DNA of 64,000 nucleotides from a bacterium (GTDB lineage: Bacteria > Patescibacteriota > JABMPQ01 > JBDRIV01), in NCBI GenBank assembly GCA_043815505.1, contig JBDRIV010000002.1:246943-310942 (forward strand). Reading direction: 5' to 3'. The first letter of the stretch is position 1. Each line of letters opens with the position of its first letter. The notes beneath the pieces are model-generated. The model worked only from the letters and a program-made list of their open reading frames with translations, was not told where the DNA came from and did not search any database. A program made the position numbers and the translations under genes. Below are positions 2,950 to 48,876 of this stretch, in pieces.

Positions 2950-4593
2950 ATGAAGATAATCCCATTAATCAAAAAGCATTGGTATTTAGTGGCCCTAATT
3001 ACTTTTTTTATTGTCATTACAAGCATAATAAACATTTTCACTCCTCCTTGGGCATTTCCAGATGAATCAGCCCATTTTTCTTATACTGAATTTATTATTG
3101 AACACCATACTTTACCATCATATTTAACTAGCTTAGATTTTTGGGAAGCTCATCAACCGCCGCTCTATTATTCACTGGGGGTCTTAATAAAATTACCAAT
3201 TCAAAATCTGGCAGTATCCTTGCAACTTATTGTTTTAAGATTATTTTCAACACTATTGGCAGTGGGTACAATAATGGTTTCTTATTTAATAGGAAAGAAA
3301 ATTTTCAAAAATAAATATTTAATATTATTAGTACCGACATTGGTTGCACTTTTGCCGATGCAGATTTATATTGCCAGTTCGTACAACAATGATAATTTGG
3401 CAAATTTGCTCGGAGCTCTGCTAATATATTTCTTTTTAATATTTTGGCGAGAAAAGATATCTCAAAAAAACATCATTTGGTTTTCCGTGATTGTTACAGC
3501 TTCGATTTTAACAAAAGTCGGTTTATATCCGATTGTGGCTATTGTTTTCATATTTCTAATTTATAAATTAATTAGACAGAAAAATTGGAGGTTGTTGTCA
3601 ATTATAATTATGGTCCCACTTATTTTAAGTGGCTGGTGGTTTGTTAGAAACTATTTTGTTTACGGCGATCTGTTTGGCTGGTCTCAGACTGAAAAATTGT
3701 GGGCTTTACAGAAACAAGATATTTGGCAACGAGATATTTTTATAAGATGGTGGCGAACAACTTACGAAAGCTTTTGGGGAATATTTGGTGGTTTAAATAT
3801 TGCCATGCAACCTTGGGTTTACAAAATCTTAAAAATTATTGGTGTGCTAGCATTTTTTGGCAATCTGATTTTCTTCTGGCAAAAAGAAAATTCTAAAAAT
3901 ATTAAAACCAAACTAATTTGGTTGTACGGAATATTTGGTATCACACTTCTCAGCGTTTTTGTTTACAGTATAAAATTTTATCAACCACAAGGAAGATATT
4001 TATTTATTGCTCTCATTTCAGCTGTGATATTTCTGGTTGTTGGTTTGGGAATGATTACAAAAAATAAAAATTATAGAATGTTTGTTTTAATTCTGGCAAT
4101 ATTGTTTTTTGGAAATCTCAGTTTTACCAACACAGAGTTGTTAAGAGATTATAATCAAAAGAAATATAAACCAATGACCGAATATGAAATTACCGACAAA
4201 GCTACTTTTGCAGTTGGCGAAGAAAGATTCAAAAAAGAAGGTCCGGCTACAATAACAATTAAGGATTCTGAAAATGTTTTACTGGAAACAATGTTTTCCA
4301 ACACCAGAGCTGATACTTCTAAAATTAAGCAAGTAGAACTGGAAATAGAATCTTACAGCGAAATAGAGGCAAAATTGCTATATAGAAATTTGGTTGAAAA
4401 GGAATTTATGCTGGAAAATAGTACAGATTTCACGGTAAAAGAAGGTGTAAATACTTATACACTAGCGCTACCTGACAATAGAGGTTATCCTAATATTACT
4501 AGGGAATTTGCCATATATTTAGATGGTCAAATTGGGCAATTTAATTTAAACAAATTCAAACTAGTTTTTAATGAAGAAGTAAGATCGTTATGA
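2950..4593 (+). CDS. GT-C glycosyltransferase, PMT/ArnT-like (family 39/83), with a C-terminal soluble domain
   Basis: 547 aa with about 11 TM segments. The first loop carries a DE motif (AFPDESAHFSY), and N-terminal similarity to the ORF at 1-1208 suggests a paralog. Its stop overlaps the sbcD start (ATGA). Confidence 0.55.
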   Translation: MKIIPLIKKHWYLVALITFFIVITSIINIFTPPWAFPDESAHFSYTEFIIEHHTLPSYLTSLDFWEAHQPPLYYSLGVLIKLPIQNLAVSLQLIVLRLFSTLLAVGTIMVSYLIGKKIFKNKYLILLVPTLVALLPMQIYIASSYNNDNLANLLGALLIYFFLIFWREKISQKNIIWFSVIVTASILTKVGLYPIVAIVFIFLIYKLIRQKNWRLLSIIIMVPLILSGWWFVRNYFVYGDLFGWSQTEKLWALQKQDIWQRDIFIRWWRTTYESFWGIFGGLNIAMQPWVYKILKIIGVLAFFGNLIFFWQKENSKNIKTKLIWLYGIFGITLLSVFVYSIKFYQPQGRYLFIALISAVIFLVVGLGMITKNKNYRMFVLILAILFFGNLSFTNTELLRDYNQKKYKPMTEYEITDKATFAVGEERFKKEGPATITIKDSENVLLETMFSNTRADTSKIKQVELEIESYSEIEAKLLYRNLVEKEFMLENSTDFTVKEGVNTYTLALPDNRGYPNITREFAIYLDGQIGQFNLNKFKLVFNEEVRSL

Positions 4594-5711
4594 AAATAAT
4601 TCATACAGCCGACATACATTTGGGAAGAAAATTTACCAAGCTGGGCGAAAAAGCAGGTGAGCAACGTCAACTATTACGCGACGCTTTTACAAAAGTGGTT
4701 GATTTAGCTTGCGCCGATGACGTGGACTTATTGCTGATCGCTGGCGACTTGTTTGATTCCAATAAAGTTTCGAAAGCAGAGATAGAATTTGCGCGCGAAC
4801 AATTTGAAAAATTGGCCAGCCACGAAAAATGGGTTTGTATTTCTCATGGAACTCACGATGCTAATGACGGTTTGTCGGTTTTAAATCGCGACAAGTTTTT
4901 AAATACATTTAATAATGTGATATTGTTCGACAACAAAAAACAAAGTCATAATTTCCCCCATTTAGATTTAACAGTTTATGGAATTTCTAATTCAGCTAAC
5001 AAGGGAAAAGATGACCCGCTAGCTAAAGTTCAAAAAGATGATAAAGCAAAATATCATATTGCTATGATTCACGGCTCGGTAGCAATTGAATCTAAACATG
5101 CACCCGACGATTGGCCAATTGATCCCGAGAAAATAAAAAATAGTGAATTAAATTATATTGCGCTTGGTCATTGGCATTCCACGCAAGACATGAGCCAGGG
5201 GAAAGTTCAAGCTTGGTATGCCGGGGCCCCAGAAAGTATTGATTATGATGAAAAGGGTGGTAATGCGTTAGAAGTTTCTATAACAGACAAGGAAACAAAA
5301 GTTAAGGAAATCAAAGTTGGACAAAGGAATTTTGACAAAATAGAAATTGACGTTGCAGAATTTGCTGATTACAAAGATTTGAAAAAAGCCATGATAAAAG
5401 GAGCTAACAAAAATTTAGCCAGACAAATTATTTTAAAAGGTTTGGTTGGTCCCGAAAAAATGGTTGATAAAAAAATGCTCCAAGAAGAATTAGCAGCAAA
5501 TTTCTATCAAGTAAATATTGATATCAAAAATCTTCATTTAGATATAGATAACATAAACGAAAAAGATTATCCGGAAGAATTGGTAATAGGTCAGTATGTT
5601 AGAGCTTTAAAAAAGGAATTGTCCAGCGCTAAAAATGATGAAGAAAAAGCAATTTTAGAAAAAGCTTTGCATAAAGGCGTGGCTCTGCTTTCTGGAAAGG
5701 AGATTCTGTAA
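4590..5711 (+). CDS. sbcD: DNA repair exonuclease SbcD/Mre11 (calcineurin-like phosphoesterase)
   Basis: The phosphoesterase motifs are present: MKIIHTADIHLG, LLLIAGDLFD, SHGTHD, MIHG, GHWH. Confidence 0.85.
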   Translation: MKIIHTADIHLGRKFTKLGEKAGEQRQLLRDAFTKVVDLACADDVDLLLIAGDLFDSNKVSKAEIEFAREQFEKLASHEKWVCISHGTHDANDGLSVLNRDKFLNTFNNVILFDNKKQSHNFPHLDLTVYGISNSANKGKDDPLAKVQKDDKAKYHIAMIHGSVAIESKHAPDDWPIDPEKIKNSELNYIALGHWHSTQDMSQGKVQAWYAGAPESIDYDEKGGNALEVSITDKETKVKEIKVGQRNFDKIEIDVAEFADYKDLKKAMIKGANKNLARQIILKGLVGPEKMVDKKMLQEELAANFYQVNIDIKNLHLDIDNINEKDYPEELVIGQYVRALKKELSSAKNDEEKAILEKALHKGVALLSGKEIL

Positions 5712-7757
5712 ATGTTTATAAAACTTTTACAACTTAGACGTTTTAAAAAGTTTGATGAGTTGGAACTGTTTTTTACTTCAGGAATTAACGTTATCAAAGG
5801 TCCAAATGAAGAGGGGAAGTCAACTTTGGTAGCCGCTCTATTGGCTGGACTCTTTTTAGATCCTAAATCTCGTTCGCAAAGCAAAGTTCTGCCCTTAAAA
5901 TCTTGGCATCACGAACAGCTTTTTGAAACCAATACGGTTTTTGTGACTGATGCCAACAAACAATATTTATTGCAAAAAGATTTTGAAAATAAAGAAATTT
6001 TGTTACGTGATGAAAACAAAAAAAATGAATGGAAGACTTTTGATGAAGTGAGAGAAATTATTGCCACAGAAACTGGACTTTCATCGCCAGAGTTGTTTGC
6101 AGCTACCGCCATGATTGAACAAGACAAAGTGGCAGAAATTTCATCGGGCAAAAAGGAATTGGAAAAATCTTTACAAATCTTGGTAACGGCTGGCCAAGAT
6201 AGTGCCAATGTTCAGGATATTTTAAAAAGTTTAGATAAAGAAATTAAAAATTATAATCGCGGAGTGGATAGACCAGTTTCTAATCCCGGATTAATAAGAA
6301 AAATCTCAGATGAATTAACCAGTGTAACAGCCGAAATTTCTAAAGAAGCTGGAGGAGTGCAAACAATTGATAAAGTGAGATCAGAAAACGACGAGTTGGT
6401 TAAAAGAACAGAACAGAACAAAAAAGATTTAGATCAAAAGAAGGAATTAAAAGATTTGAATTTGCAGTTTAGAGATTTAAGTGGCAAGTTGGAAAAATAC
6501 GAAAAAGATCTAACAGACGTTACAACTACAATTTCTGAACTTGAAAAAATAAATAATGAATTAAGAAATAATAAAAAATCCTTAAGTATTTTTAAAGATT
6601 GGGAAAAAAGGAATTTGGATAAAGATGAAGACAGTTTAACCAGACTCTCCGAACGGGTAGCAATGGCTAAAAGTATTGTTACCGAAGAAATAAAAGCTAA
6701 ACGACCAACTTGGCCCTGGCTGGTTGGTGGCGCGTTAATCGTTTTAGGCTTGATAGGTTTAGCCATTTATTGGTATACAAGCTTGTTAGCTCTCATCGGA
6801 ATTGCGGTTATCATATTTGGTTTTACTCAAAAATCTCAAAAACAAGTTGCCATTCATGATAAACATGAAGCTGACAAGGAAGATAAAAAGTTGGCAGAAC
6901 TTTTAAAAGACTTGGGTGTTAAAACGTTAGAAGAGTTTAAAAAGAAGAAAGAAGAAATGGTAAGTATACATAACAAAGAACAAGAATTAATGTCGGAACG
7001 TAAAGGAATTTTAAGAGATCGCAAAGAAAATGATTTGGAAAAACAAAAAACAGTCTTGGCCAGAGATATTGCTGTAACTGAAGCTAAAATTACTGATGAA
7101 ATGAAACAAGCTAAGCTTTCACCAGAAGAATGGCATAAGCTGGATAAAGATATTGAAGAATTGGACAGACAATTTAGAAATGATCGCGAACATTACGAAA
7201 AAAATCTAGGAATAATTGAACAGTATGAAAAAAGTAGTCATGATCTGGTTGCGATGGAGGAAAGGCAAGAACAACTACAAGGAAAATTAGATTTCGTGAA
7301 AGAACAAGAGCAAGTTCTAGAAACTGTAAAAAACTTTATGCTAAATTCCAGTGTTGATGTTGTGAAAACAAGTAAAACCAGATTACAAAAGAATTTAAAT
7401 GAAATATTGCCAACTATTACGAATGGAAAATACAAGAAAGTTGAAGTCGCCGATGATTTATCTTTTACTGTTTTTTCAGATGAAGCGGGGGATAAAATTG
7501 TTCCCGAGAAATCACTTTCTCGAGGAGCGATTGATCAATTTTATTTAGCAGTGCGGTTTGCTTTTATTGATTTAATATCTGAAGGAAAAAAACCACCAAT
7601 TATTTTAGATGATCCCTTTGTAACTTTTGATAAAAGTCGGCGCGCTGCCACTATGGGATTATTAAAAGATTTAGCCAAAGATTATCAAATATTTTTATTT
7701 ACTGCATCTGATGATTATGACAAATATGCCAATAAAGTAATTGCTCTCAATGGATAA
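5712..7757 (+). CDS. sbcC: SbcC/Rad50-like ATPase with a central transmembrane hairpin
   Basis: Walker A (GPNEEGKST), coiled-coil regions, signature LSRGAIDQ, and Walker B IILDDPF. The coiled-coil apex (about aa 335-375) holds two hydrophobic helices (WLVGGALIVLGLIGLAIYWY / LLALIGIAVIIFGF), and there is no CxxC zinc hook. Confidence 0.75.
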   Translation: MFIKLLQLRRFKKFDELELFFTSGINVIKGPNEEGKSTLVAALLAGLFLDPKSRSQSKVLPLKSWHHEQLFETNTVFVTDANKQYLLQKDFENKEILLRDENKKNEWKTFDEVREIIATETGLSSPELFAATAMIEQDKVAEISSGKKELEKSLQILVTAGQDSANVQDILKSLDKEIKNYNRGVDRPVSNPGLIRKISDELTSVTAEISKEAGGVQTIDKVRSENDELVKRTEQNKKDLDQKKELKDLNLQFRDLSGKLEKYEKDLTDVTTTISELEKINNELRNNKKSLSIFKDWEKRNLDKDEDSLTRLSERVAMAKSIVTEEIKAKRPTWPWLVGGALIVLGLIGLAIYWYTSLLALIGIAVIIFGFTQKSQKQVAIHDKHEADKEDKKLAELLKDLGVKTLEEFKKKKEEMVSIHNKEQELMSERKGILRDRKENDLEKQKTVLARDIAVTEAKITDEMKQAKLSPEEWHKLDKDIEELDRQFRNDREHYEKNLGIIEQYEKSSHDLVAMEERQEQLQGKLDFVKEQEQVLETVKNFMLNSSVDVVKTSKTRLQKNLNEILPTITNGKYKKVEVADDLSFTVFSDEAGDKIVPEKSLSRGAIDQFYLAVRFAFIDLISEGKKPPIILDDPFVTFDKSRRAATMGLLKDLAKDYQIFLFTASDDYDKYANKVIALNG

Positions 7758-10632
7758 TATTGCTGTCAAGAAACTGAATCGCGAGCAAAGAAGGGCCGTA
7801 ACCGCAGGAGGTGGCCCACTTTTAATCGTGGCTGGCGCTGGTACTGGTAAAACGACAGTTATTACTCAACGTTTTGCTTGGCTTTTAAAAAACAAGAAAT
7901 TAGAACCAAAAAACATTTTAGCCGTAACTTTTACCGAAAAAGCGGCGGGAGAAATGGAGGAGCGCATCGATCAGCTTTTGCCACTGGGTTATTCTGATTT
8001 ATGGATTCACACTTTCCATGGCTTTGCTGATAGAGTTTTACGTTCTCATGCCTTAGAAATTGGCCTGGATCCATTTTATAAAGTTTTAACTCAATCCGAT
8101 CAGTGGCTTTTCTTACGCAAACATATTTTTGATTTCAACATTGATTATTATCGGCCCCTGGGCAATCCTACAAAATTCTTGCAGGAAATTATAAAACACA
8201 TTAGTCGTGCCAAAGATGAAAATGTTACGCCAGCAGATTATAAAAAGTATGCCAATACCAAACACAAAGATAAAGATGGAGAAGAAATAAAAAGATTAAA
8301 AGAAATTGCTCATATTTATGCCAAATATCAGCAAAAAATGGCCAAGGCTGGATTCTTGGATTTTGGTGATCTTATTATGTACACCATGAAGCTTTTTAAG
8401 AAACGACCCAACATTTTAAAAGAATACCAGCAACAATTTAAATATATTTTGGTTGATGAATTTCAGGATACTAACTGGGCGCAATACGCCATGATGAAGA
8501 TGATGGCGCGTCCAGAAAACAATCTAACGGTTGTAGGTGATGACGACCAAGCAATTTTCAGGTTCCGAGGAGCTTCCGTTTCCAATATTCTACAATTCGA
8601 AAAAGATTTTCCCAAAGCAAAAAAAGTTGTGATGTTGCAAAACTACAGATCCACGCAAGAAATTCTGGATTTAGCATATAAATCAATCCAGTTTAATAAT
8701 CCTGATCGCTTGGAAGAAAAATATGGTATTAATAAAAAATTGCAAGCGCAAAAAAAGGATGAGAAATCTGTAAACTGGATTCATAAAAAAACTATGGAAC
8801 AAGAGGCGGTGGCTGTGGTTGAGGAAATAATTAAATTGAATAAAAAGCAAAAATCTTGGAATAAATTTTGTATTTTGGTACGCGCTAATGCCACGGCTGA
8901 TGTATTTTTAGCAGCTCTTAGCAAAAATAACATTCCCTATCAGTTTTTAGCTTCACGCGGTTTGTATCAACGCTCAGAAATAATAGATATTATGTCCTAT
9001 CTTAGAGTGTTAGCAGATTTTTATGACAACATAAATTTGCTAAGAGTTTTATCAATTGAAGTATTTGATATTCATATTTCTGATATCACAAAAATAATTC
9101 ACTATGCCAAAAAGAAAAACATTCCCCTTATTGATGTTTTGTTGAATATCGATAAATATTTGAAACTATCAAGCGAAACTAATCAAAAAGTAAATAAAGT
9201 TACCAATTTAATTGAAGAGCACAGTAATTTGGCCAAAAATCGTCCCGCTTCAGAAATCTTGGTTCACTTTTTAGAAGATTCTGGTTACATGAAAGATTTG
9301 CGCTCTCAAGACACGCCAGAAAATGACGAAATAATTTTAAATATTGGTCAGTTTTTCAAACAAGTTCAAGAATATCAGCTGACGGGTAATACTTTCTTGG
9401 TGCGAGATTTTATTGCGGAAGTGGATTTAGCAATAGAAGGGGGCGAAGATCCAGCGCCAGTTGTGCCCATGGAAGGACCAGAAGCTGTAAAAATTATGAC
9501 CATTCACGCAGCTAAGGGTTTAGAGTTTCCAGTAGTTTTTGTAGCTTCAGTTGTGGAAGAAAGATTTCCAGTGCGTCGGCGTTCCGATCTTATTCCTCTG
9601 CCCAATGATTTTGTAAAAGAAATACTACCAGAAGGAGATGAACACTTGGAAGAAGAGCGGCGTTTGTTCTACGTTGCCTGCACTCGGGCTAAAGAAAAAC
9701 TTTATTTTACAACCGCTGAAGACTACGGTGGTAAGCGCAGTAAAAAAATATCACGTTTTTTATCTGAAATTTCAAAACCTTTGACAAAATTTGTGAAAGA
9801 AGTACCACCAAAATTATCTCCGAAAGAAAAAGAAGAGGCTCTAGGGTTCATAAAACCTGAAGCAGCTGTAATAGTTAAAAGAACGGGAACTAAATTTGAA
9901 ATTCCCAAAAAGTTTTCCTATTCTCAAATTAGAGATTTTAATGATTGTCCGTTACGTTATAAATTTAAATATCTGTTAAAAATTCCTCAACGAGGTTCTC
10001 AGGTTTTTTCTTATGGTCAATCTTTACACGGCACGTTGCGAAAGTTTCATGAACAAATAAAATTGGGCAAGCAGCCAAAGGAGGAAGACTTACATAAATA
10101 TTTAAATCAAGAATGGGTGGGTGATTGGTATTCTTCTCGGGCTCATGAAAGAAAAAGAAAAAAGGAAGCCAAGGACACCTTAAAAAAATATTATCAAGAC
10201 AACAAAAGTAATTTCAAAAAGCCAGTTTATTTGGAAAAAGGTTTTAGTGTAAAAATAAACAAAACTTCATTTTCAGGATTCATTGATCGCGTAGATGATT
10301 TAGGTAAAGGGAAAGTGGAGATTATTGATTACAAAACCGGTTCTATGCCAAAAGCCAAAGCAGATATTGAACAAGCGAAAAGACAGCTTTATATTTATGG
10401 TTTAGCTATGAAAGAAGTTTTCAAATTACAGCCAGAAAAAGTAACCCTTTATTATTTAGACAAAGGAGAACAGATTTCAGATTCATTATTGCCAGAGAGA
10501 ATGAAGATAGAAATGAAGGAATTAGTGACTACAACAAAGGAAATCAAGAAAAGTAAATTTAATCCCACACCTGGTTATATGATTTGTAAATATTGTGACT
10601 TTCGTGATATTTGCGAAGCGAGACATAGATAG
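7741..10632 (+). CDS. UvrD/PcrA-family helicase fused to a C-terminal RecB/Cas4-like PD-(D/E)xK nuclease with an Fe-S cysteine cluster (AddA/AddB-like helicase-nuclease)
   Basis: The helicase motifs GAGTGKT and VDEFQDTN are present. The C-terminus carries GFIDRVDDLGKGKVEIIDYKTG plus C...CxxCxxxxxC (CPLRY...CKYCDFRDIC). The start overlaps sbcC by 17 nt. Confidence 0.8.
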   Translation: MLSMDNIAVKKLNREQRRAVTAGGGPLLIVAGAGTGKTTVITQRFAWLLKNKKLEPKNILAVTFTEKAAGEMEERIDQLLPLGYSDLWIHTFHGFADRVLRSHALEIGLDPFYKVLTQSDQWLFLRKHIFDFNIDYYRPLGNPTKFLQEIIKHISRAKDENVTPADYKKYANTKHKDKDGEEIKRLKEIAHIYAKYQQKMAKAGFLDFGDLIMYTMKLFKKRPNILKEYQQQFKYILVDEFQDTNWAQYAMMKMMARPENNLTVVGDDDQAIFRFRGASVSNILQFEKDFPKAKKVVMLQNYRSTQEILDLAYKSIQFNNPDRLEEKYGINKKLQAQKKDEKSVNWIHKKTMEQEAVAVVEEIIKLNKKQKSWNKFCILVRANATADVFLAALSKNNIPYQFLASRGLYQRSEIIDIMSYLRVLADFYDNINLLRVLSIEVFDIHISDITKIIHYAKKKNIPLIDVLLNIDKYLKLSSETNQKVNKVTNLIEEHSNLAKNRPASEILVHFLEDSGYMKDLRSQDTPENDEIILNIGQFFKQVQEYQLTGNTFLVRDFIAEVDLAIEGGEDPAPVVPMEGPEAVKIMTIHAAKGLEFPVVFVASVVEERFPVRRRSDLIPLPNDFVKEILPEGDEHLEEERRLFYVACTRAKEKLYFTTAEDYGGKRSKKISRFLSEISKPLTKFVKEVPPKLSPKEKEEALGFIKPEAAVIVKRTGTKFEIPKKFSYSQIRDFNDCPLRYKFKYLLKIPQRGSQVFSYGQSLHGTLRKFHEQIKLGKQPKEEDLHKYLNQEWVGDWYSSRAHERKRKKEAKDTLKKYYQDNKSNFKKPVYLEKGFSVKINKTSFSGFIDRVDDLGKGKVEIIDYKTGSMPKAKADIEQAKRQLYIYGLAMKEVFKLQPEKVTLYYLDKGEQISDSLLPERMKIEMKELVTTTKEIKKSKFNPTPGYMICKYCDFRDICEARHR

Positions 10633-12515: not shown

Positions 12516-12902
12516 ATGAGACTGAGAAGTTATTTAATAGGCATGGCGCTCGCAACTGCATTTTGTTCGTTTTCTTTTGGATTAATTCTATTCTATGTAG
12601 ATCCGAATGAATCGGGAATTGTGGGAGTCATTTCGTTTTATGCCAGCTTACTATTTGCCAGCATTGGAACATTTACCATTTTAGGTTTCTATTTACGCTT
12701 GTTTTTTTCCAAAAACGAAATAGTATTTGCCCATGTTGCACCAGCCTTCAGGCAAGCTGTACTACTCGCCTTAGCCTTAATCGGCTCGCTGTTACTGCAA
12801 GCGTTTCGTTTGTTAACTTGGTGGGATGCGGCCCTTCTCGTTTTAACTCTGGCGTTATTTGAATTTTATTTTTTATCAAGAAAAATAGGTGTTAAGAACT
12901 AG
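12516..12902 (+). CDS. Hypothetical small membrane protein (4 TM)
   Basis: 128 aa and hydrophobic. No recognisable motif. Confidence 0.4.
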   Translation: MRLRSYLIGMALATAFCSFSFGLILFYVDPNESGIVGVISFYASLLFASIGTFTILGFYLRLFFSKNEIVFAHVAPAFRQAVLLALALIGSLLLQAFRLLTWWDAALLVLTLALFEFYFLSRKIGVKN

Positions 12903-13260
12903 ATTAAAAAGAACTGTCATTGCCAGTTGTGTGAAAGTTCAAGAGCTTATTGGATCTGCTCAAAGAGAACAGATGTACAAAAAAGCTCTCACCTTTGATT
13001 TACGCAAAAATGGTTTTAAAGTAGATACCAACAAAAGATTTTCAGTTGGTATTAATGACGAAAATTTGTTTTATTACAATTTGGATTTGATTGTAAATGA
13101 AGAAATGATTATTAAAATTGCCGCCCATCCTGGTGAATTACCAAAAGAAATTGTGACAGAAGTTTTAAAGCAACAACAAATTTCCGATCTGCCTGTAGCT
13201 GTGGTGGTGAATTTTGCCAATACAGAATTAGATATTAGAATTTTTGAGAATGAAAAATGA
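12889..13260 (+). CDS. GxxExxY-family protein (PD-(D/E)xK-like)
   Basis: LIGSAQREQMYKKALTFDLRKNGFKV ... DLIVNEEMIIKIAAH ... VVVNF matches my memory of the GxxExxY family pattern. It overlaps both neighbouring genes. Confidence 0.45.
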   Translation: MLRTRLKRTVIASCVKVQELIGSAQREQMYKKALTFDLRKNGFKVDTNKRFSVGINDENLFYYNLDLIVNEEMIIKIAAHPGELPKEIVTEVLKQQQISDLPVAVVVNFANTELDIRIFENEK

Positions 13261-14296
13261 ACTAAATAAAATTCGTAAAGAAGCTAAAGAAAAAATATTT
13301 CAAGCTAAAAACGAAAAAGAATTGAATTCTTTGCGTGTTTTGTATTTGGGACGCAAAGGAGAAGTTAGCAAGTTGCTAAAATCCATTAGTCAATTGAATA
13401 AAACCGAGCGACCAAAAATGGGAGCAGCTATAAATGAATTAAAAACATTCATCCAAGAAACTTTAGCAGAAGCAGTAAGAGATTTGGAAATGGCTAAGTT
13501 TTCCCATTTGGCAAAAAGCGAAAGATTAGATGTTACAAAACCGGTAGGAAAAATAACTGGTGAAAATCATTTGGTTACAGACATGACTCATAAAATCTGG
13601 CAAACATTTCAATTGCTTGGTTTTAAAGTCGTGTTGGGGCCAGAGATAGAAACGGACGAAATGAATTTTAAAGCTTTAAATGTTCCGGACGATCATCCTG
13701 CTCGTGATATGCAAGACACTTTTTATTTATCAAATAATTTATTACTCAGAACTCACACTTCTTCTGTGCAAGGAAGAATTATGCAGAAAGAAGATCCACC
13801 ATTACGTGTAATTTCTACCGGCAAATGTTTTCGCCGTGATGATGACATGACGCACACGCCAATGTTCCACCAGTTTGAAGGTTTTGTGATTGATAAAAAT
13901 ATAACCATGGCCGATTTAAAAGGAACGCTCACGCAAGCCATGCGCCTTTTGTTAAACGACGACAAGTTGAAAGGTCGGTTCAGAATTTCTTATTTTCCTT
14001 TTGTAGAACCGGGAGCAGAATTTGATGTCACTTGCACAATTTGTGGAGGTAAGGGCCTACCCGCGGGCGCGGGGCGCGACCAGGGTTGTCGCACCTGCAA
14101 AGGAACTGGTTGGATTGAAATGGGCGGTTGCGGTATGGTGCATCCTAATGTATTGGAATATGTTGGTTATGAAAAAGGCAAATGGCAAGGTTTTGCGTTC
14201 GGATTTGGCATCGAAAGACCACTTATGATAAAACACAGAATTCCAGATTTGAGAATGTTTTACGAAAACGATATCAGATTTTTATCTCAATTTTAA
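13244..14296 (+). CDS. pheS: Phenylalanine--tRNA ligase alpha subunit
   Basis: N-terminal helical arm, class II motifs (FRRDDD, GCGMVHPNVL, GFAFGFGIERPLM), and an extra CxxC...CxxC insertion. Confidence 0.9.
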   Translation: MRMKNELNKIRKEAKEKIFQAKNEKELNSLRVLYLGRKGEVSKLLKSISQLNKTERPKMGAAINELKTFIQETLAEAVRDLEMAKFSHLAKSERLDVTKPVGKITGENHLVTDMTHKIWQTFQLLGFKVVLGPEIETDEMNFKALNVPDDHPARDMQDTFYLSNNLLLRTHTSSVQGRIMQKEDPPLRVISTGKCFRRDDDMTHTPMFHQFEGFVIDKNITMADLKGTLTQAMRLLLNDDKLKGRFRISYFPFVEPGAEFDVTCTICGGKGLPAGAGRDQGCRTCKGTGWIEMGGCGMVHPNVLEYVGYEKGKWQGFAFGFGIERPLMIKHRIPDLRMFYENDIRFLSQF

Positions 14297-27756: not shown

Positions 27757-29268
27757 ATGCCAATAAACCCGTTTTCAGGAAATAGAGGTGGTGGAGCTAT
27801 TCGCCCTGGACAACCAATCCAAGGTGGTAGTTTTGGTAATTCAGATAATAAAAAGAAGGATGATATTGATAAAGAGCCAGGTTCCGTTATTGGTTCTACG
27901 CAAGTAATGCCAGGTTTGGGTAGTGCACCTCAATCACAACCTGAGAAAAAGACAGCTAGAAGTTTTAATTTTGGTCAGTTTGGTCATAAAGATAAAAAGG
28001 ATGATCAACCAAATTTCAAACCTAAAGCCGCTTTTAATTTGCCTAAAAAAGAAATTCCAACAAGTCCACCAGTGAAACCACAAGAACCTTCTTCTCCAAA
28101 GAAGTCTTCGGGGCTAGGAAAAACTCTTTTAACAATACTAATAATTGTTGCTTTACTGGCTGGCTTTGTTTATTTATGGTTTGACCTAAGCAGTTTGAAG
28201 AATAATTTGGATATAGATAGTATTAAGGAATTAAATAAGGTTACTGCCGAATTAAGAGATAATATTGAATCTCTAACAACTTCTGCTGAACTTGATAATC
28301 GAATAGATCAATTGGAAGGAGATATGGATAATGTAAAAGAAGCATTAGGTGACACTTCTGAAGATAGTTTAGCTAGCGTAATCGCTTTGCTTAAACAATA
28401 TGACACCGACGGTGATGGTTTGAATGATTATGAAGAACAAGTTACTTATAGAACTGATATAAATAATAAAGACACCGACGGTGATGGTTATGAAGACGGT
28501 GTGGAAGTTGACAATGGCTATAATCCTAATGGCGAAGGTCGTTTGGATGAAGGAACAGAAGAAAACAACACTGAGGAAAATGAAGATACCGATGCAGCCA
28601 CAGCTGCCAGAACTGCATATGAAAATTTTATGGATTACAGACGTCAGCAAAAGCAAACTGAAACAGAAAATTTAATGACAGTAGCTGCTTTAGAGGCAAT
28701 TTCCGACAATGATTCTTTATATGGTCCAGGCAACGGTGTTACCTTTGCTGAATATGAAATAACTTCGGCTGTAGGTGAAAGTAAAACAAAAGCTAAATTT
28801 ATTGCGAAAGAATATTTATCAAATGCTTCCGATGCCGAAGATTATGAGTTGCACGAAACTACTTTAGAGAAAATAAATGGTTCTTGGCTGGTTACAAATT
28901 ATAATGAAGAGGCTATAGAAAAAACAACTCAAAGTGAAAGTGCTGTTGTGCAAGAACAGACAAGTAAGTTTATGAATGCGCGTATGGTTTCCAATCGCGC
29001 TACTGCTTTAGAATTTTTGACCGATGCAGCTAAGAACAAATATCAGTTTTCTGATATTTTACTTGGTCAGTCTGATCCGCATTATGAATCATACCGAATT
29101 ATGAAAATTGAAAATTCTGGCAATAACAAATATACTATAAATATTGAAATAAGTGAGGCTTCAAATGGAACGGTAACAAGAACTTTTGAAGAAACTTTAT
29201 CTGTAGAATTAGTTTCATCTGAGTGGTTGGTCAGTGCCATAAGTGGTAATATATATGATGCCAGCTAA
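27757..29268 (+). CDS. Membrane-anchored protein with thrombospondin-type-3-like Ca-binding repeats
   Basis: A single TM helix, repeated DTDGDGLNDYEE / DTDGDGYEDGVEVDNGYNPNGEG motifs, and a C-terminal domain. Confidence 0.5.
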   Translation: MPINPFSGNRGGGAIRPGQPIQGGSFGNSDNKKKDDIDKEPGSVIGSTQVMPGLGSAPQSQPEKKTARSFNFGQFGHKDKKDDQPNFKPKAAFNLPKKEIPTSPPVKPQEPSSPKKSSGLGKTLLTILIIVALLAGFVYLWFDLSSLKNNLDIDSIKELNKVTAELRDNIESLTTSAELDNRIDQLEGDMDNVKEALGDTSEDSLASVIALLKQYDTDGDGLNDYEEQVTYRTDINNKDTDGDGYEDGVEVDNGYNPNGEGRLDEGTEENNTEENEDTDAATAARTAYENFMDYRRQQKQTETENLMTVAALEAISDNDSLYGPGNGVTFAEYEITSAVGESKTKAKFIAKEYLSNASDAEDYELHETTLEKINGSWLVTNYNEEAIEKTTQSESAVVQEQTSKFMNARMVSNRATALEFLTDAAKNKYQFSDILLGQSDPHYESYRIMKIENSGNNKYTINIEISEASNGTVTRTFEETLSVELVSSEWLVSAISGNIYDAS

Positions 29269-32127: not shown

Positions 32128-33270
32128 TTATTTAACTTTAATATCAATATGATCTTCTAAGGTAGGAACTGTTTTTACCCAGAAAGGGGAGAAAGATACT
32201 TCAATATCTTTTATATCCTTGTACTCTTCATAATACTGTTTTATTTCCATTTCGTTAAGGCCTTTAAGCTTTTCTTTTTCAAACAACTGATTGGAAAGCT
32301 TAGCAATTACATCAGCCGTTAAGGTGGCTTCAACTTTAGCTGTTCCGGCCACTAAATCATAGTCGGTAATTTTATAGGTAAAACTATCATCTTGAATTTG
32401 GACCAATTCTTGGTCAGCAGGAATAGAGGCTTCTAAATTATTTTTGGCATATTCTTTTAGAGTTTCTTCATCGTAAGTAATAACGGTGATTTTGGCTTTA
32501 ACTGTAACATCGAAAGTATCTGCTTCAGTATCCTTAGGTACACTAAATTCCTTAGAAATAAGCTCTTTTTGCGCTTCTACTTCAAATATTGCTTCACCCG
32601 ATTTTAAGTCTTTAGAGAGTTCTTTGATGGCATCTGTAGCTGCCTGATCGAGTGCTTCTTCTTCACCACGAGCCATTTCTTTTTCCGTTACAACTTTGGC
32701 TTCGCGGTAACCGCCGGTGGTAGCAGTTTTAGTTTCTCCATAAATTTTTTTTTGCCAATCGGGGAAGAGTTTTATGATATTAAATCTTTGGGGATCCAAA
32801 TTTCCTGTTTTTCCCGGTTGATCAGCTGTGATGTCTACTGTAACTTCTTCACCGGCTTTAGCAACAATGCGCTCGTCAGTTCTAAACAAAACATTATTTT
32901 CTGACATTAATTGCGAATTAGGAAGTAGAGGTTGGTCTTTATCACGCTTATTATAAATAGTAATTGTACCGGTGGCTTTTTCATCAAGGCCAATAGTTTC
33001 TACATTATTTACTGTGTAGGTGGATTTAACTTCAGTGGTAAGAACTCGGCCGGTAATAGTAACTCCCAGTTGTTCGGAATCATTTATATTATCTGGTGCA
33101 ATCATAGCATTAAAAGAACTTGTTAAAGTATCGTCTTGAGGAACAAGATTAATAGCTGCCCTAGAAAAAGAAGCATAAATTACAAAAGCAATTAAAAGAA
33201 GACTAGCGAGCACAAAAAATACAAGCAGCTTTTTATATGATTTACCGGTTTCGATTTTTCCTATATACAT
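32128..33270 (-). CDS. Hypothetical membrane-anchored protein, in an operon between dnaE and thrS
   Basis: 380 aa with an N-terminal TM. No recognisable motif. Confidence 0.4.
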   Translation of the reverse strand: MYIGKIETGKSYKKLLVFFVLASLLLIAFVIYASFSRAAINLVPQDDTLTSSFNAMIAPDNINDSEQLGVTITGRVLTTEVKSTYTVNNVETIGLDEKATGTITIYNKRDKDQPLLPNSQLMSENNVLFRTDERIVAKAGEEVTVDITADQPGKTGNLDPQRFNIIKLFPDWQKKIYGETKTATTGGYREAKVVTEKEMARGEEEALDQAATDAIKELSKDLKSGEAIFEVEAQKELISKEFSVPKDTEADTFDVTVKAKITVITYDEETLKEYAKNNLEASIPADQELVQIQDDSFTYKITDYDLVAGTAKVEATLTADVIAKLSNQLFEKEKLKGLNEMEIKQYYEEYKDIKDIEVSFSPFWVKTVPTLEDHIDIKVK

Positions 33271-42437: not shown

Positions 42438-44405
42438 ATGGCAGTAGCAAAACTACAAAAAATCAGGCTCATATGTCACAAGCAGAAAAAGGAAGAAGTG
42501 CTTGATTTTTTACATACGGTTGGTGTTATGCACGTTGAATTGGAGACAAAAGAAGGAGAAGTAGTTGGTGAAGCTTCAACTTTAGAATACGATTTGGCAG
42601 AAGTAAAATTTGCTATTGATTTTCTAACCCCTTTTGAAGTTATACCTAAGCAATCTTTGTCCCAAAAACTTGATGGCAAGAAAATTCGTTTAACCAAAAA
42701 AGAATTTAAGAAAGCAGTTTCCGGATTTGATTGCAAAAATCTATTAGTTGAGATTAAGAAAGTTGATGAGGATTTAAATTATGCAGAATCAGAAAGTATA
42801 AGCGAGCAAGAAAAAGTGACTACCTACAAAAAATGGATTCCTTTGCACGAAAAGCTATCTGCTATAAAAGATAATGGTTCAACAAAGTTTATACTGGCCG
42901 AAGTTCCCCAAGTGCATTACGATTTCTTTTTGGAAAAGTTTGATCAAGAGGTGAAATTGGCTGAAGTTAAAAAAGTTAATAGTCTGGATGGATTTGAACA
43001 ACTTCTAATTATTGTAAACGAGAAGTTTAGAGAACAAGCTGTTAATGTGCTTTCTGAATTTGCAGGATTGGAAGTTGATTTACCAAAAAATGGCAAAACA
43101 CCAAAGGAATTGGTCGATATTCATTCCAGAAGAGCAAAGTCTTCTAAAAAGGAAATCGAGAAATTAAATGAACATGCCATTAATTTGGCAGAAAATTTGC
43201 AGAGTTTTAGAATTTTATTTGATTATTTAACTTGGCAACAAGAAAAAGAGGAAGTGCAAAAGGGGAGCGTAATGACAGATAGTACGGTGGCCATGACCGG
43301 TTGGATTCGTGCTAAAGCTTACGGAGATATAAAAAAGGATTTAGCCAAGATTACCAAATTGCTAACATTAAAGAAGATTAAGCCTAAAAAAGACGAAGAG
43401 ACTCCAGTTTTACTTGAGAATAAATCTGTTATTAGACCCTTTGAAGCAGTTACAAATATTTATGGTGCACCAAAATCATCTGAGATTGACCCGACATTTT
43501 GGTTGGCACCATTTTTTATAGTTTTCTTTGGACTAGCTTTAACTGATGCTGGTTACGGAATTGTTTTAGCCCTATTTGCTTTTATTGGTATGAAAGTAAT
43601 GAAAGTTCCTGGAGAAAAACAGCGTTTATGGAGACTTTTAATTTATGGTGGTATTTCCACTTTTGTAATTGGAATTCTGTTTGGTGGTTGGTTCGGAATC
43701 GTGTTGGATGACTTACCAGATTCAATTGGCTTTATAAGAGATTTCCTATTATCACTCAGAATGATTGACCCAGTAGCTGATCCAATTACCTTTATGATCT
43801 TATCTTTTGCCCTAGGAATTCTGCATGTTCTAACTGGAATCGCTATTGATATTGTCTGGAAGATTAAAAACAAAGATTATGTTGATGCTATTTTGGACAG
43901 CGGATTGTGGTTCTATTTCATTGTAGTATTATTACTTTTCGCTCTAGCAGCTGTTGGTGTTTTGCCAGAGAGTTTCTCCGGACCTGCAAAAATCGCCGTC
44001 CTAATTGGCGCTGGATTACTGGTTGTAACACAAGGTAGAAAGAGTAAAAATATTGTAGCCAAAGCTGGTATTGGTGCTCTTAGTCTTTATAATATTGTTG
44101 GCTATTTTTCTGACATCCTTTCTTATTCTCGTTTGCTAGCCTTAGGATTGGCCACCGGAATAATTGCTATGGTAGTTAACCTAATTGCTGTTATGTTTAA
44201 AGAGATGATTCCAGTTGTTGGCTGGGTAGTTATGATTCTAGTTTTGGTCGGTGGACATTTGTTTAATTTAACGATTAACGCCCTCGGAGCTTTTATTCAC
44301 TCCGGTCGTTTGCAGTTTGTAGAATTCTTTCCGAAATTTATGGAAGGTGGCGGCAGTCGTTTCAAACCGTTTGTCAGAGAAGGGAAGTATGTCATTGTTA
44401 GCTAA
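42438..44405 (+). CDS. V/A-type ATPase subunit I (a subunit, membrane)
   Basis: 655 aa with an N-terminal soluble domain and a C-terminal domain of about 8 TM. Confidence 0.8.
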   Translation: MAVAKLQKIRLICHKQKKEEVLDFLHTVGVMHVELETKEGEVVGEASTLEYDLAEVKFAIDFLTPFEVIPKQSLSQKLDGKKIRLTKKEFKKAVSGFDCKNLLVEIKKVDEDLNYAESESISEQEKVTTYKKWIPLHEKLSAIKDNGSTKFILAEVPQVHYDFFLEKFDQEVKLAEVKKVNSLDGFEQLLIIVNEKFREQAVNVLSEFAGLEVDLPKNGKTPKELVDIHSRRAKSSKKEIEKLNEHAINLAENLQSFRILFDYLTWQQEKEEVQKGSVMTDSTVAMTGWIRAKAYGDIKKDLAKITKLLTLKKIKPKKDEETPVLLENKSVIRPFEAVTNIYGAPKSSEIDPTFWLAPFFIVFFGLALTDAGYGIVLALFAFIGMKVMKVPGEKQRLWRLLIYGGISTFVIGILFGGWFGIVLDDLPDSIGFIRDFLLSLRMIDPVADPITFMILSFALGILHVLTGIAIDIVWKIKNKDYVDAILDSGLWFYFIVVLLLFALAAVGVLPESFSGPAKIAVLIGAGLLVVTQGRKSKNIVAKAGIGALSLYNIVGYFSDILSYSRLLALGLATGIIAMVVNLIAVMFKEMIPVVGWVVMILVLVGGHLFNLTINALGAFIHSGRLQFVEFFPKFMEGGGSRFKPFVREGKYVIVS

Positions 44406-44429
44406 TAAACCAAATTATTTGGTAGTTAG

Positions 44430-44933
<504 letters not shown>

Positions 44934-45488
44934 ATGGCACTTAAAAACGTCATAGAAAAAATTAGTCAAGATGCTAACACTGAAGCTTCTAAAAATATAA
45001 AAGAAGCTGGTCTTCAGGCTGACAAAATTTTGCAAGTGGCTGATAAAAAATCAGAAATGATAAGAACCAAAGTTTTGGAACAGGGAAGAGTGAAAGCTGA
45101 TAAAATTCATGAGCAAGCTGTGAGCGCTGCGGTTATGTGGGAGAGAAACGAAATTCTTAAAAGCAAACAAAAAACTTTGCAGGAAGTTTATGAAGAATTA
45201 TCAGCTAAGATGCAGAATCTATCTGACGAAGAACACAAGCAGTTGCTAAGCAAACTACTAAAAGGTTTACCAACTGAAGGTGAAATTGTAGCCACAAAGA
45301 AGAGTCAAAGTTTACTGCGTGATTTAGTTTCACAAGCTGGGCTAAATTTGGCCAGTGAAACTATTGCTGGCGATGGTGGCTTCATGTATCGATCTGATGA
45401 GATTGATATTGACCAAAGATTTGAAAGTGTTCTGAAATCTTTGCGCGAAGAAACTGAAGCCGGAGCAGCTAATAAACTTTTTAACTAA
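44934..45488 (+). CDS. V/A-type ATPase subunit E
   Basis: 184 aa, coiled coil. Confidence 0.7.
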   Translation: MALKNVIEKISQDANTEASKNIKEAGLQADKILQVADKKSEMIRTKVLEQGRVKADKIHEQAVSAAVMWERNEILKSKQKTLQEVYEELSAKMQNLSDEEHKQLLSKLLKGLPTEGEIVATKKSQSLLRDLVSQAGLNLASETIAGDGGFMYRSDEIDIDQRFESVLKSLREETEAGAANKLFN

Positions 45489-45494
45489 CTTAAG

Positions 45495-45567
45495 CCCAGT
45501 AGTACAACCATAAAGTTGTTCTGCTGGCAAAACCAGTAATTATTAATCATTAAGTTGTACTACTGGA
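45495..45567. mobile_element. Family-1 inverted-repeat element, copy 7, inside the ATPase operon and abutting the subunit C ATG
   Basis: cccagtagtacaa...ttaagttgtactactgga-ATG. Confidence 0.5.
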
Positions 45568-46575
45568 ATGGGTGTAACAAACGATAAATATTTGTTTGCC
45601 ACCGGCCGGTTGAGATCACTGGAGGCAAAAGTTTTGTCGCCAACTGACATTGATCGCATGGTGGATGCTAAAGATGCAGAAGAAGCATTGAAAGTTTTTA
45701 ATGACCTTTCTTTAGCAGACGAGCGAGTGGACATGAAAGACGCCACTTCTTTTGAGGCGGCTGTTATGCACGACTTGGGTCAATTAAAAGATGAAATCGC
45801 TGGTCTGACACCTGATAATGTTTTATTGGAATGGTTGTTTTTAGCAGAAGATGCTCACAATGTGAAGTTGCTTCTAAAACTAGCCAAAGGTGAGTTAGTT
45901 GAAGAAAAATATTTAGGTTCATTTTCCAACTTAGCTTTGTTACCACTGGAAAAACTAAAAATTCTTCTAGACGGTAAAAATGAAGAAGTAAGTGAAGTTT
46001 ATAGAAATTTTATTACTGAAGTTTTGGAGAACAAAGCAAAAGCAGAAGAAGCGATTCAAATTGATATGATGGTTGATAAGGCTTACACAAAAGCGCTTGG
46101 TGCCATGTCAAAAATAATCAGAAAAGATTTTGTTAAGAAAATTACCGAGTACAGAATTAATGCTGCTAACATTAAAACTTCTATTCGTCTAAAACTTATG
46201 GACAAACCAGTTGGAGTTTTAAATGAAGCATTTAATGAAGGTGGAAACCTAAAGTTAAATGATGTAGTAGAAGTGTATGGTGGACAAACAACAGACTTGG
46301 CTAAAGTTTTGCAATCTAGTATTGATGGTTCACTGAAAGAAAGTATCAGTAAAGCTTTGGAAGAAAAACAATTGAGCGAATTGGACAAAGCTTTGGAAGA
46401 ATATGAATTGCAACTCTGTGCCGAAACTACATACATAGCTTATGGACCAGAAATTGTTGTGGCTTACACAATTCTAAAACAAGCAGCGCTAAAAAATATT
46501 CGTTTAATAATGAGTGGCAAAGTAAATGACATTCAGCCAGCTGAAATCAGACAATACTTAAGAGTCAAGCAATAA
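45568..46575 (+). CDS. V/A-type ATPase subunit C (V0 d-like)
   Basis: 335 aa, helical. Confidence 0.7.
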   Translation: MGVTNDKYLFATGRLRSLEAKVLSPTDIDRMVDAKDAEEALKVFNDLSLADERVDMKDATSFEAAVMHDLGQLKDEIAGLTPDNVLLEWLFLAEDAHNVKLLLKLAKGELVEEKYLGSFSNLALLPLEKLKILLDGKNEEVSEVYRNFITEVLENKAKAEEAIQIDMMVDKAYTKALGAMSKIIRKDFVKKITEYRINAANIKTSIRLKLMDKPVGVLNEAFNEGGNLKLNDVVEVYGGQTTDLAKVLQSSIDGSLKESISKALEEKQLSELDKALEEYELQLCAETTYIAYGPEIVVAYTILKQAALKNIRLIMSGKVNDIQPAEIRQYLRVKQ

Positions 46576-46576
46576 A

Positions 46577-46906
46577 ATGACAGATTATAAATTAGCTATA
46601 ATTGGTTCCAAAGATGCCATCGCCGGGTTCTCAGCACTGGGTGTTGAAACTTTGAATGTTTTGGATGCCGACGGTGCTAAAAAAGCTTTGCTAGAAGTAA
46701 CTGAGAAAGATATGAACTTTGCTGTCGTTTTCATCACAGAGGAATTTGCCATGCAAGTTGAAGATGAAATTGCTGAAAATTCTAGCGGACCATTGCCAGC
46801 TATAGTTCCTATTCCTTCTTATCAGGGAAGTAAGGGAGCTGGCACAGCCAAACTCCGTCGCATAGTCGAGCAGGCGGTAGGTTCAGACATACTCTTTAAA
46901 AATTAG
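46577..46906 (+). CDS. V/A-type ATPase subunit F
   Basis: 109 aa, MTDYKLAIIGSKDAIAGFSALGVE. Confidence 0.75.
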   Translation: MTDYKLAIIGSKDAIAGFSALGVETLNVLDADGAKKALLEVTEKDMNFAVVFITEEFAMQVEDEIAENSSGPLPAIVPIPSYQGSKGAGTAKLRRIVEQAVGSDILFKN

Positions 46907-47088
46907 TGTGAGGTCGGCGAATTCATTTCGCGACCGAACTCCAAGGAAGGGGAGGAGCGAACTGCGATAGCAGTGAGCGAGTCGGAAGGGGAAACCCCGA
47001 TTGGGTTTCACCTCCGAGTGGATTTAAAGAATAAAACTTGTTTCTATTTGGAGACAGATTTAATTCCTTAAATTAGTAAAATTATATT
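46907..47088 (+). other. GC-rich structured intercistronic spacer between atpF and atpA
   Basis: About 55% GC against about 35% in the flanks. Hairpins gtcggcgaa/ttcgcgac and gaaaccc-cgatt-gggtttc. No ORF. Confidence 0.3.
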
Positions 47089-48858: not shown

Positions 48859-48876
48859 TAGAAAGGACTACATACT

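Follow-up and report, generated by a model that had tools for sequence, protein, structure and literature searches.

The 64,000-nucleotide (nt) stretch of Patescibacteriota DNA analyzed here (contig JBDRIV010000002.1, positions 246,943 to 310,942; hereafter the window) carries on its forward strand three consecutive genes, which encode an SbcD/Mre11-like nuclease, a Rad50-like ATPase, and a helicase fused to a nuclease. It is considered probable that the first two products form a membrane-tethered Mre11/Rad50-like complex, which works with the third, a resection helicase-nuclease, in the processing of DNA ends. The key element of this system is the ATPase, which its homologies assign to the SbcE/YhaN family as a short-form member, and not as a novel derivative of SbcC. 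Instead of a zinc hook, the middle of this protein carries a hydrophobic helical hairpin that, judging from its sequence, is best read as a membrane anchor, and that is the hallmark of the SbcE/YhaN family rather than a peculiarity of the locus. Far from being a one-off invention, the locus represents that family in ordinary fashion, its three-gene arrangement being specific to the clade.

The ATPase (gene 3; 681 amino acids (aa); 5712-7757, + strand) matches the Pfam families AAA_27, AAA_23, AAA_15, and SMC_N in a profile search, and its score against AAA_27 (PF13514), 33.0 bits, lies above the gathering threshold of 22. The head of this SMC/Rad50-like ABC ATPase contains a Walker A motif, GPNEEGKS (aa 30-37; 5799-5822, +; located by motif inspection), whose residues N32, E33, G35, and K36 are invariant in the family alignment, as well as a Q-loop (Q137), a D-loop and, at 7515-7613 (+), the segment that leads from the signature LSRG (aa 602-605) to the Walker B motif IILDD (aa 630-634). 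The residue that follows Walker B is Asp in place of the usual Glu, as it is in 137 of the 148 family representatives with a recognizable Walker B, and the site of the H-loop His (within ‘FFTCH’ in Listeria YhaN) is occupied by other residues in the subfamily of approximately 700 aa, the window protein displaying ‘FLFTAS’ at this position; the Asp and the missing His suggest a slow, switch-like ATPase. The family profile recognizes Rad50 heads in the PDB at 3.7e-24, and the best Foldseek match of the ATPase model is also Rad50 (7zr1). Together with the matches of gene 2 described below, these profile and fold comparisons bear out the first-pass annotation of the stretch, which had described an ATPase of Rad50/SbcC type alongside SbcD. 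Scores against the NCBIfam Rad50/SbcC equivalogs peak at 83 bits, where the cut-off is 700.

The ATPase had also been called similar in concept to the Bacillus YhaN/SbcE proteins, a likeness that holds but understates the relationship, since the AAA_27 score, the YhaN-named homologues, and homology to a Listeria protein make it a real member of that family. Homologues at 26-35% identity, which stem from Patescibacteria, Actinobacteria, and other lineages, carry PF13514 and are labeled by their sources as AAA family ATPase or, at JGI, as “uncharacterized protein YhaN”; one lies on a contig with LpxC and LptE genes and another on a clostridial contig. Every one of these homologues displays a hydrophobic hairpin in its middle, and CxxC is absent from all of them. 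The closest named homologue is annotated as belonging to a Patescibacteria group bacterium (locus L002), and the ATPases of L002 and of a second related locus, L087, are approximately 35% identical to that of the window. Among 1.84 billion proteins, a profile built from 11 family members retrieves 10,781 cluster representatives at E <= 1e-30, and the best 150 of these are mostly of approximately 700 aa. The sample of representatives referred to throughout consists of the 149 top-scoring full-length ones of at least 600 aa, drawn from the 10,781, and is accompanied by a metagenome scan that gave 80 loci, of which those fetched provided 62 distinct complete proteins. In Listeria monocytogenes, consecutive genes for a Metallophos (411 aa), an AAA_27 (907 aa), and an OB+HD (328 aa) protein form an operon whose identity as yhaO-yhaN-yhaM rests on these domains; the record (NZ_CP030101.1, locus L089; 2.9 Mb, 12 annotated features) is labeled ‘plasmid unnamed’ in a plasmid collection and is evidently a chromosome. 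BLASTP aligns the window ATPase with this YhaN at 38% identity over 112 aa of the C-terminal head (E 1e-17), and also aligns the Walker A region. SbcE/YhaN proteins of Bacilli measure approximately 900-960 aa and have heptad regions of approximately 300 aa, as opposed to 681 aa and an N-terminal arm of approximately 130 residues here; this length, the short arm, and the presence of a helicase-nuclease gene instead of yhaM downstream place the window ATPase in a short-form subfamily. No second SMC-like open reading frame (ORF) was found in a profile search of all ORFs of the window, and a single-protein scan of genome contigs matched just one genome, of Lachnospiraceae, and there only weakly and at the N-terminus. 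A literature search on Rv1277/Rv1278 returned no functional information.

The hairpin (aa 332-375; 6705-6836, +), which reads PTWPWLVGGALIVLGLIGLAIYWY-TS-LLALIGIAVIIFGFTQ and is predicted to anchor the coiled-coil tip in the membrane, sits at 49-55% of the length of the ATPase and is the sole hydrophobic stretch of the protein. Kyte-Doolittle averages over 19-residue windows reach 2.1-2.2 at aa 332-375 only, and the uncharged run of 42 residues (aa 332-373) would be expected approximately 1e-5 times in a protein with 34.5% charged residues. On the biological scale, the predicted summed insertion energies of the two 17-mers are approximately -1.7 and -1.4 kcal/mol, and the rest of the protein scores +9.3 or more. 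An AlphaFold2 model (11-sequence alignment, mean pLDDT 80.5) displays a split head resembling that of Rad50, two long helices (194-292 and 302-325), linkers modeled with low confidence, the two short hairpin helices (334-350 and 354-371), and helices 376-569 that return to the head, with a C-terminal arm that is approximately 60 residues longer than the N-terminal one (helices 376-434). Hydropathy, insertion energies, and the model all confirm the two hydrophobic helices that had been noticed mid-protein near aa 335-375, and the absence of a CxxC hook, noted at the same time, follows from the fact that the protein contains 0 cysteines.

Across the family, none of the 149 representatives carries a central CxxC, and in 138 of them the central hydrophobic stretch spans at least 34 residues; of the 62 distinct metagenomic proteins, which likewise have no central CxxC, 57 contain the hairpin. 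In both sets it lies at a relative position of 0.45-0.58 along the protein. The sequence of the hairpin drifts from member to member, and its position, length (median of 44 uncharged residues), and hydrophobicity are kept. The 12-residue flanks contain on average 3.0 and 3.2 K+R versus 1.7 and 1.5 D+E, a bias opposite to that of the coiled-coil arms (K+R 2.06 versus D+E 2.54); such enrichment of K and R on both sides fits the positive-inside rule for a hairpin with both ends in the cytoplasm. In Listeria YhaN, which also has no CxxC, the hairpin is found at aa 426-471 of 907. The membrane-tethered Mre11/Rad50-type complex proposed in the first-pass annotation is thereby upheld as a prediction from sequence and model, with the hairpin as its anchor. 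More broadly, SbcE-type proteins are probably membrane-anchored Rad50 analogues, a trait that seems under-recognized in the literature searched, where no account was found of a YhaN/SbcE or Rad50-like protein that is transmembrane or anchored in the membrane. Sequence databases probably flag the hydrophobic segments of YhaN-family proteins automatically.

The partner of the ATPase is encoded immediately upstream (gene 2; 373 aa; 4590-5711, +) by an SbcD/Mre11-family gene of the YhaO/SbcF type, with matches to Metallophos (5.5e-12), Mre11_Sulfo (1.4e-23), and sbcd (2.4e-20), PDB matches to Mre11 and SbcD, and scores far below the NCBIfam SbcD equivalog cut-offs. It aligns with Listeria YhaO at 24% identity over 320 aa (E 1e-16). 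Its phosphoesterase motifs read DIHLG (aa 8), GDLF/GDLFD (52), GTHD (87), HG (161), and GHWH (193); motifs I, II, IV, and V are kept, and motif III carries Thr at the site of the usual Mre11 metal-ligand Asn (GNHD), a position at which Thr and Asn alternate among members of this SbcD-like family. Nearly all loci that offer the space carry an SbcD-like gene immediately upstream of that for the ATPase, and so does Listeria. These SbcD-like proteins share a conserved C-terminal tail of helix-loop-helix type (PEELV.GQFVR ... LEKAL.G.ALLQG), and this helix pair may be the counterpart of the domain through which Mre11 binds Rad50. In one relative (L004, 5926-6999), the corresponding motifs are degenerate (DINLG, GNLFD, GSNET, GGRPD) beside an intact, hairpin-bearing YhaN-like protein, and the SbcD-like protein is there probably a dead nuclease that is kept as a structural partner. 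A second small Metallophos gene (approximately 230 aa) follows a long-form YhaN gene in two further loci (L039, 3019-3717, after a YhaN of 882 aa; L071, 5358-6047, after one of 905 aa), that of L071 being additional to the upstream SbcD-like gene.

Gene 4 (7750-10632, +; 960 aa from the ATG) encodes a PcrA/UvrD-type SF1A helicase with a C-terminal RecB-family nuclease, as is indicated by Pfam matches to UvrD-helicase (1e-85), UvrD_C (3e-57), and PDDEXK_1 (1e-35). The PD-(D/E)xK domain (9913-10632, +), delimited by Pfam and motifs, displays the four-cysteine pattern of AddB/Cas4-type nucleases (C736 ... C949-x2-C952-x5-C958) and the putative active-site motifs IDRVD, IIDYK, and QLYIY, which supports the earlier description of a UvrD-type helicase with an AddB/Cas4-like iron-sulfur (Fe-S) nuclease; homologues of the nuclease domain occur either fused to PcrA or by themselves, as proteins named ‘RecB family exonuclease’. 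The idea of an AddAB-like machine is apt as a concept but not as a family assignment, the helicase core being PcrA/UvrD-like: the PDB matches are led by PcrA (4e-111), with AdnB (3.5e-44), AddA (1e-33), and RecB (1.6e-12) behind it, and every NCBIfam equivalog cut-off is missed, be it that of pcrA (TIGR01073; 557 bits, cut-off 911), AddA (208 against 708), or RecB (174 against 696). The protein is encoded by a single gene, which is followed by a tRNA gene and not by a gene for a second subunit.

Conservation in relatives ties this helicase-nuclease to the SbcD-ATPase pair. The order SbcD, ATPase, helicase-nuclease, which is that described at first pass for the last three genes of the locus, is retained in all seven of the closest relatives examined (7/7): the helicase-nuclease gene lies directly downstream of the ATPase gene in the window and in L002, L091, L092, and L093, and 1-2 kb downstream in L087 and L088, where inserted genes intervene; pheS-pheT lie beyond it in those relatives whose contigs extend so far. 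Orthologues of gene 4 are 46-49% identical, and thus better conserved than the ATPase, the closest (L091) displaying 70% identity over its first 267 aa. More distant YhaN loci do not have the helicase-nuclease. In another lineage, a YhaO-YhaN pair is directly followed by genes for AddB (ADDB_N + PDDEXK_1, 1114 aa) and an AddA-like helicase (L016, 4901-13893), and an AddB-like gene lies 2.3 kb downstream of such a pair in L019 (4624-8160); these linkages point to an independent association of the pair with end-resection enzymes.

A mechanism can be proposed on this basis, in which the products of genes 2 and 3 would form an Mre11/Rad50-like complex of the SbcF/SbcE (YhaO/YhaN) type. The hairpin would enter the cytoplasmic membrane in an in/in topology, with both coiled-coil arms in the cytoplasm, so that the ATPase-nuclease head would hang approximately 20 nm under the membrane from a coiled coil of approximately 130 residues with flexible linkers; the extra helices of the C-terminal arm (376-434) may form a membrane-adjacent element. 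Contacts between hairpins within the bilayer could replace dimerization through a zinc hook, and ATP-driven engagement of the heads would clamp DNA ends, or DNA near the membrane, which the SbcD-like nuclease would then process. The PcrA-like 3'-5' helicase with its Fe-S RecB-family nuclease would most likely unwind and resect the ends that the complex had opened. The three genes would in this manner constitute a compact module of the core genome for the processing of double-strand breaks and DNA ends.

The setting of such an activity can be approached through Bacillus subtilis, where SbcE (YhaN) and SbcF (YhaO) of the yhaO-yhaN-yhaM operon have been studied (Krishnamurthy et al. 2010, PMC2811018). 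SbcE has an SbcD-like partner, and its study revealed sensitivity to double-strand breaks and reduced transformation (PMC2811018), while polar foci of the protein have been reported at the DNA-entry pole of competent cells (PMC2811018; PMC3384303). Lacking CxxC, it carries a “unique central domain” with a hydrophobic first half and a conserved proline, a domain that was wholly insoluble when expressed; neither SbcE nor SbcF could be solubilized, and the domain was not termed transmembrane (PMC2811018). A survey of 2019 still described the role of SbcEF as “poorly characterized” (PMC6452273). With these data behind it, the processing of double-strand breaks and DNA ends appears to be the setting that best fits the window genes. 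A role at the site of DNA uptake would be an attractive possibility, given the B. subtilis foci, the conservation in Patescibacteria of DNA uptake by the Com/type IV pilus system, and the natural competence of Saccharibacteria (PMC10633639). A bolder extension, which is offered tentatively and remains somewhat doubtful, is that SbcEF-type complexes may be widespread membrane-tethered Mre11/Rad50 machines, whose transmembrane hairpin would dimerize in the bilayer in place of a zinc hook and position the head under the membrane, where it would deal with DNA ends that are formed at the membrane or reach it, for example through ComEC/type IV pilus entry; end resection in this clade, whose genomes are reduced, would then depend mainly or solely on the SbcF-SbcE-PcrA/nuclease trio.

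Several observations weigh against the proposal of a membrane-tethered complex that works with the helicase-nuclease. Within the hairpin, the confidence of AlphaFold2 is just 59-73, and the helices, with 17-18 residues each, are rather short to cross a bilayer; SbcE-YFP foci were observed both at the poles and on the nucleoid (PMC2811018), which is not obviously a membrane pattern. The activity of the SbcD-like nuclease is not assured in view of the Thr at the motif III metal-ligand site, and a relative, L004, has a clearly degenerate one. Co-transcription with the helicase gene is not obligatory, as the genes inserted in L087 and L088 indicate; its adjacency could partly reflect synteny inherited within one clade, and the helicase could simply be the housekeeping PcrA of the organism. 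The shortness of the helices and the nucleoid foci would also suit a hairpin that does not span the membrane, forming instead the buried four-helix dimerization core of a soluble complex or a monotopic, in-plane anchor in one leaflet, as would the Pro or Gly in the turn of many members, the Pro that falls within the middle third in 70 of 148, and the treatment of the SbcE domain by its authors as a novel domain of soluble type, insoluble upon over-expression (PMC2811018). This is judged unlikely. An uncharged run of some 40-45 residues in which Kyte-Doolittle values exceed 2 is a typical feature of lipid-embedded segments and not of soluble cores; a sequence that drifts freely while hydrophobicity and length are kept behaves as a lipid-facing helix does, and both the K/R enrichment on the two flanks and the negative predicted insertion energies point in the same direction.

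Two further alternatives concern the genes around the complex. The possibility that the cassette is an anti-phage or anti-plasmid module, in which a membrane-tethered SMC-like sensor and its nucleases would destroy incoming DNA at the membrane, with a logic akin to that of Lamassu, Gabija, or Wadjet, would agree with a membrane location, suited to the interception of injected DNA, with Foldseek matches to Lamassu LmuB and JetC, and with PADLOC matches of the ATPase, over its full length, to LmuB (4e-15) and of the helicase to GajB (4e-103). These PADLOC matches reflect generic SMC-head and UvrD similarity, the helicase scoring far better as PcrA/UvrD, and no system-specific partner (LmuA/LmuC, a GajA-type TOPRIM protein, or another) was found at the locus by PADLOC. 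The genes lie in core synteny with pheST, gyrB, and dnaE that is conserved across relatives, with no variable island; the gene pair occurs in many lineages, including the Listeria yhaO-yhaN-yhaM operon; the B. subtilis phenotype concerns DNA repair and transformation; and phage and plasmid collections give weak partial matches at most. In favor of a defense role, a plasmid of Sphingomonas sp. NBWT7 carries a gene (L090, 1989-5474; 1161 aa) annotated ‘YhaN family protein’ that comes directly after a ‘DNA repair exonuclease’ gene, which in turn follows one for an AbiEii toxin. Its product matches AAA_27 strongly and has no hydrophobic hairpin (maximum Kyte-Doolittle value, 1.57), which indicates that AAA_27 comprises hairpin and non-hairpin branches, some of the latter on mobile elements. 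Core context, generic matches, and missing partners led to the rejection of the defense-type nuclease module suggested at first pass, and such a role is regarded as quite improbable. The remaining alternative takes all four genes as one unit, in which a glycosyltransferase-like membrane protein, the product of gene 1 (2950-4593, +; 547 aa), would partner the membrane-anchored nuclease complex; the ATGA start/stop overlap of genes 1 and 2 is real, and both the gene 1 protein and the complex are predicted to be membrane-located. The label ‘GT39-like’ given to gene 1 is right only loosely: the polytopic protein, with many hydrophobic segments and a PDE motif after its first transmembrane segment, is of DUF2142/GT-C-like type (DUF2142, 46.5 bits against 30.1, 3e-12), with a far sub-threshold match to the LA_3751/3752 putative glycosyltransferases and no GT39/PMT match in profile searches. 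No match to it was detected in any related locus searched; its slot is occupied, with equally tight spacing, by a Na/Ca exchanger (Na_Ca_ex) gene in L002, L087, and L088, and by other genes in L093. As this linkage is not conserved, the functional unit comprises two genes, or three in this clade, and not four; synteny effectively refutes the proposed coupling to a glycosyltransferase, the four-gene unit was rejected as having hardly any likelihood, and gene 1 is a chance, unrelated neighbor in a tightly packed genome.

How little the overlaps reveal can be appreciated from the junctions themselves. The ORF listing corroborates four tightly packed + strand ORFs at 2950-10632, and of the junctions described at first pass, the ATGA overlap between genes 1 and 2 and the TAA followed at once by ATG between genes 2 and 3 (4590-5711 abuts 5712) are present as stated, whereas the 17-nt overlap of genes 3 and 4 applies only if the helicase starts at TTG 7741 (7741-10632, 963 aa). 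ATG 7750 is the likelier start, since the N-terminal length then equals that of the L002 orthologue, and the overlap amounts to 8 nt (ATGGATAA). Within the 64-kb window, 17 of the 39 same-strand junctions have a gap of at most 10 nt or an overlap, and these include clearly unrelated pairs, such as the small PDDEXK_3-family ORF (12889-13260, +) that runs 17 nt into pheS (13244-14296, +). Dense packing is a property of the genome, such that overlaps alone tell little about function, and conservation in relatives is the relevant test of a functional operon. Promoter-like sites number 46 versus approximately 30 expected, and terminator-like sites are at chance level, counts that are uninformative in such AT-rich DNA. 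A 380-aa ORF with a Baseplate_J-like match (32128-33270, -; 4e-8) lies between thrS and dnaE, with a gap of 0 nt to the former and of 9 nt to the latter, an odd site for a phage-baseplate-like protein.

The window as a whole is core chromosome of approximately 35% GC, with pheST, gyrB, gatB, thrS, dnaE, A/V-type ATPase, and tRNA genes nearby, and pheST is found downstream of the cassette in the window as in its relatives. Subunits I, A, and B of an archaeal/vacuolar-type (A/V) ATPase are encoded at 42438-50256 (+) in place of an F-type ATP synthase. A 503-aa ORF at 27757-29268 (+), whose sole Pfam match is the bacterial TSP3 (thrombospondin type 3) repeat, may encode a secreted or surface protein. 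In L002, type IV pilus genes (PilM, N_methyl pilins; positions 1-2516) are located approximately 5 kb upstream of the cassette.

SbcEF are among the least understood bacterial factors involved in double-strand breaks, and the hairpin suggests that they could belong to a Rad50-like machine tethered by lipid rather than by zinc. A membrane-type hairpin could also explain the insolubility that hindered the biochemistry of SbcE in 2009. The recurrent linkage to helicase-nucleases, in the form of a PcrA fusion here and of AddBA elsewhere, ties the SbcE/YhaN family to end resection, and the cassette points to a minimal toolkit for repair and DNA processing in ultra-small bacteria.

Comparison with known systems places these proteins at different distances from each of them. 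The ATPase, being SMC-like with a coiled coil that is short, resembles Lamassu LmuB, and the helicase, as a member of the UvrD family, resembles Gabija, but the hairpin tip and the obligatory SbcD partner fit neither system, LmuA, LmuC, and GajA are missing at the locus, and the context is that of core genes. The helicase-nuclease resembles AddAB, AdnAB, and RecBCD in its combination of an SF1A UvrD-like motor with a RecB-family PD-(D/E)xK nuclease that displays the four-cysteine Fe-S pattern, and differs from them in that its one motor and its one nuclease share a single chain, and in that its helicase core is nearer to PcrA/UvrD. SbcCD and Mre11-Rad50, which provide the best PDB matches, have in common with the window proteins an ABC head with Walker A, Q-loop, signature, Walker B, and D-loop, borne by the two ends of an antiparallel coiled coil, with a calcineurin-like nuclease as partner; the differences lie in the tip, a hydrophobic hairpin in the window and not a Zn-binding CxxC, in the much shorter arms, in a Walker B that ends in DD and not in DE, and in the absence of the H-loop His. 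The SbcE/SbcF systems of Bacilli differ in that their SbcE/YhaN proteins measure 907-963 aa and have heptad regions of approximately 300 residues, versus 681 aa and arms of approximately 130 residues, that Listeria YhaN keeps the H-loop His, that YhaO carries Asn in motif III where the window protein has Thr, and that the OB+HD exonuclease YhaM is encoded downstream in the place of the PcrA-like helicase-nuclease. The likeness to SbcE/SbcF nevertheless extends to an SbcD-like gene directly upstream of an AAA_27-type ATPase without CxxC, to a hydrophobic central domain between helical arms, to a Walker B followed by Asp, and to the alignment of both window proteins with the Listeria YhaO-YhaN pair.

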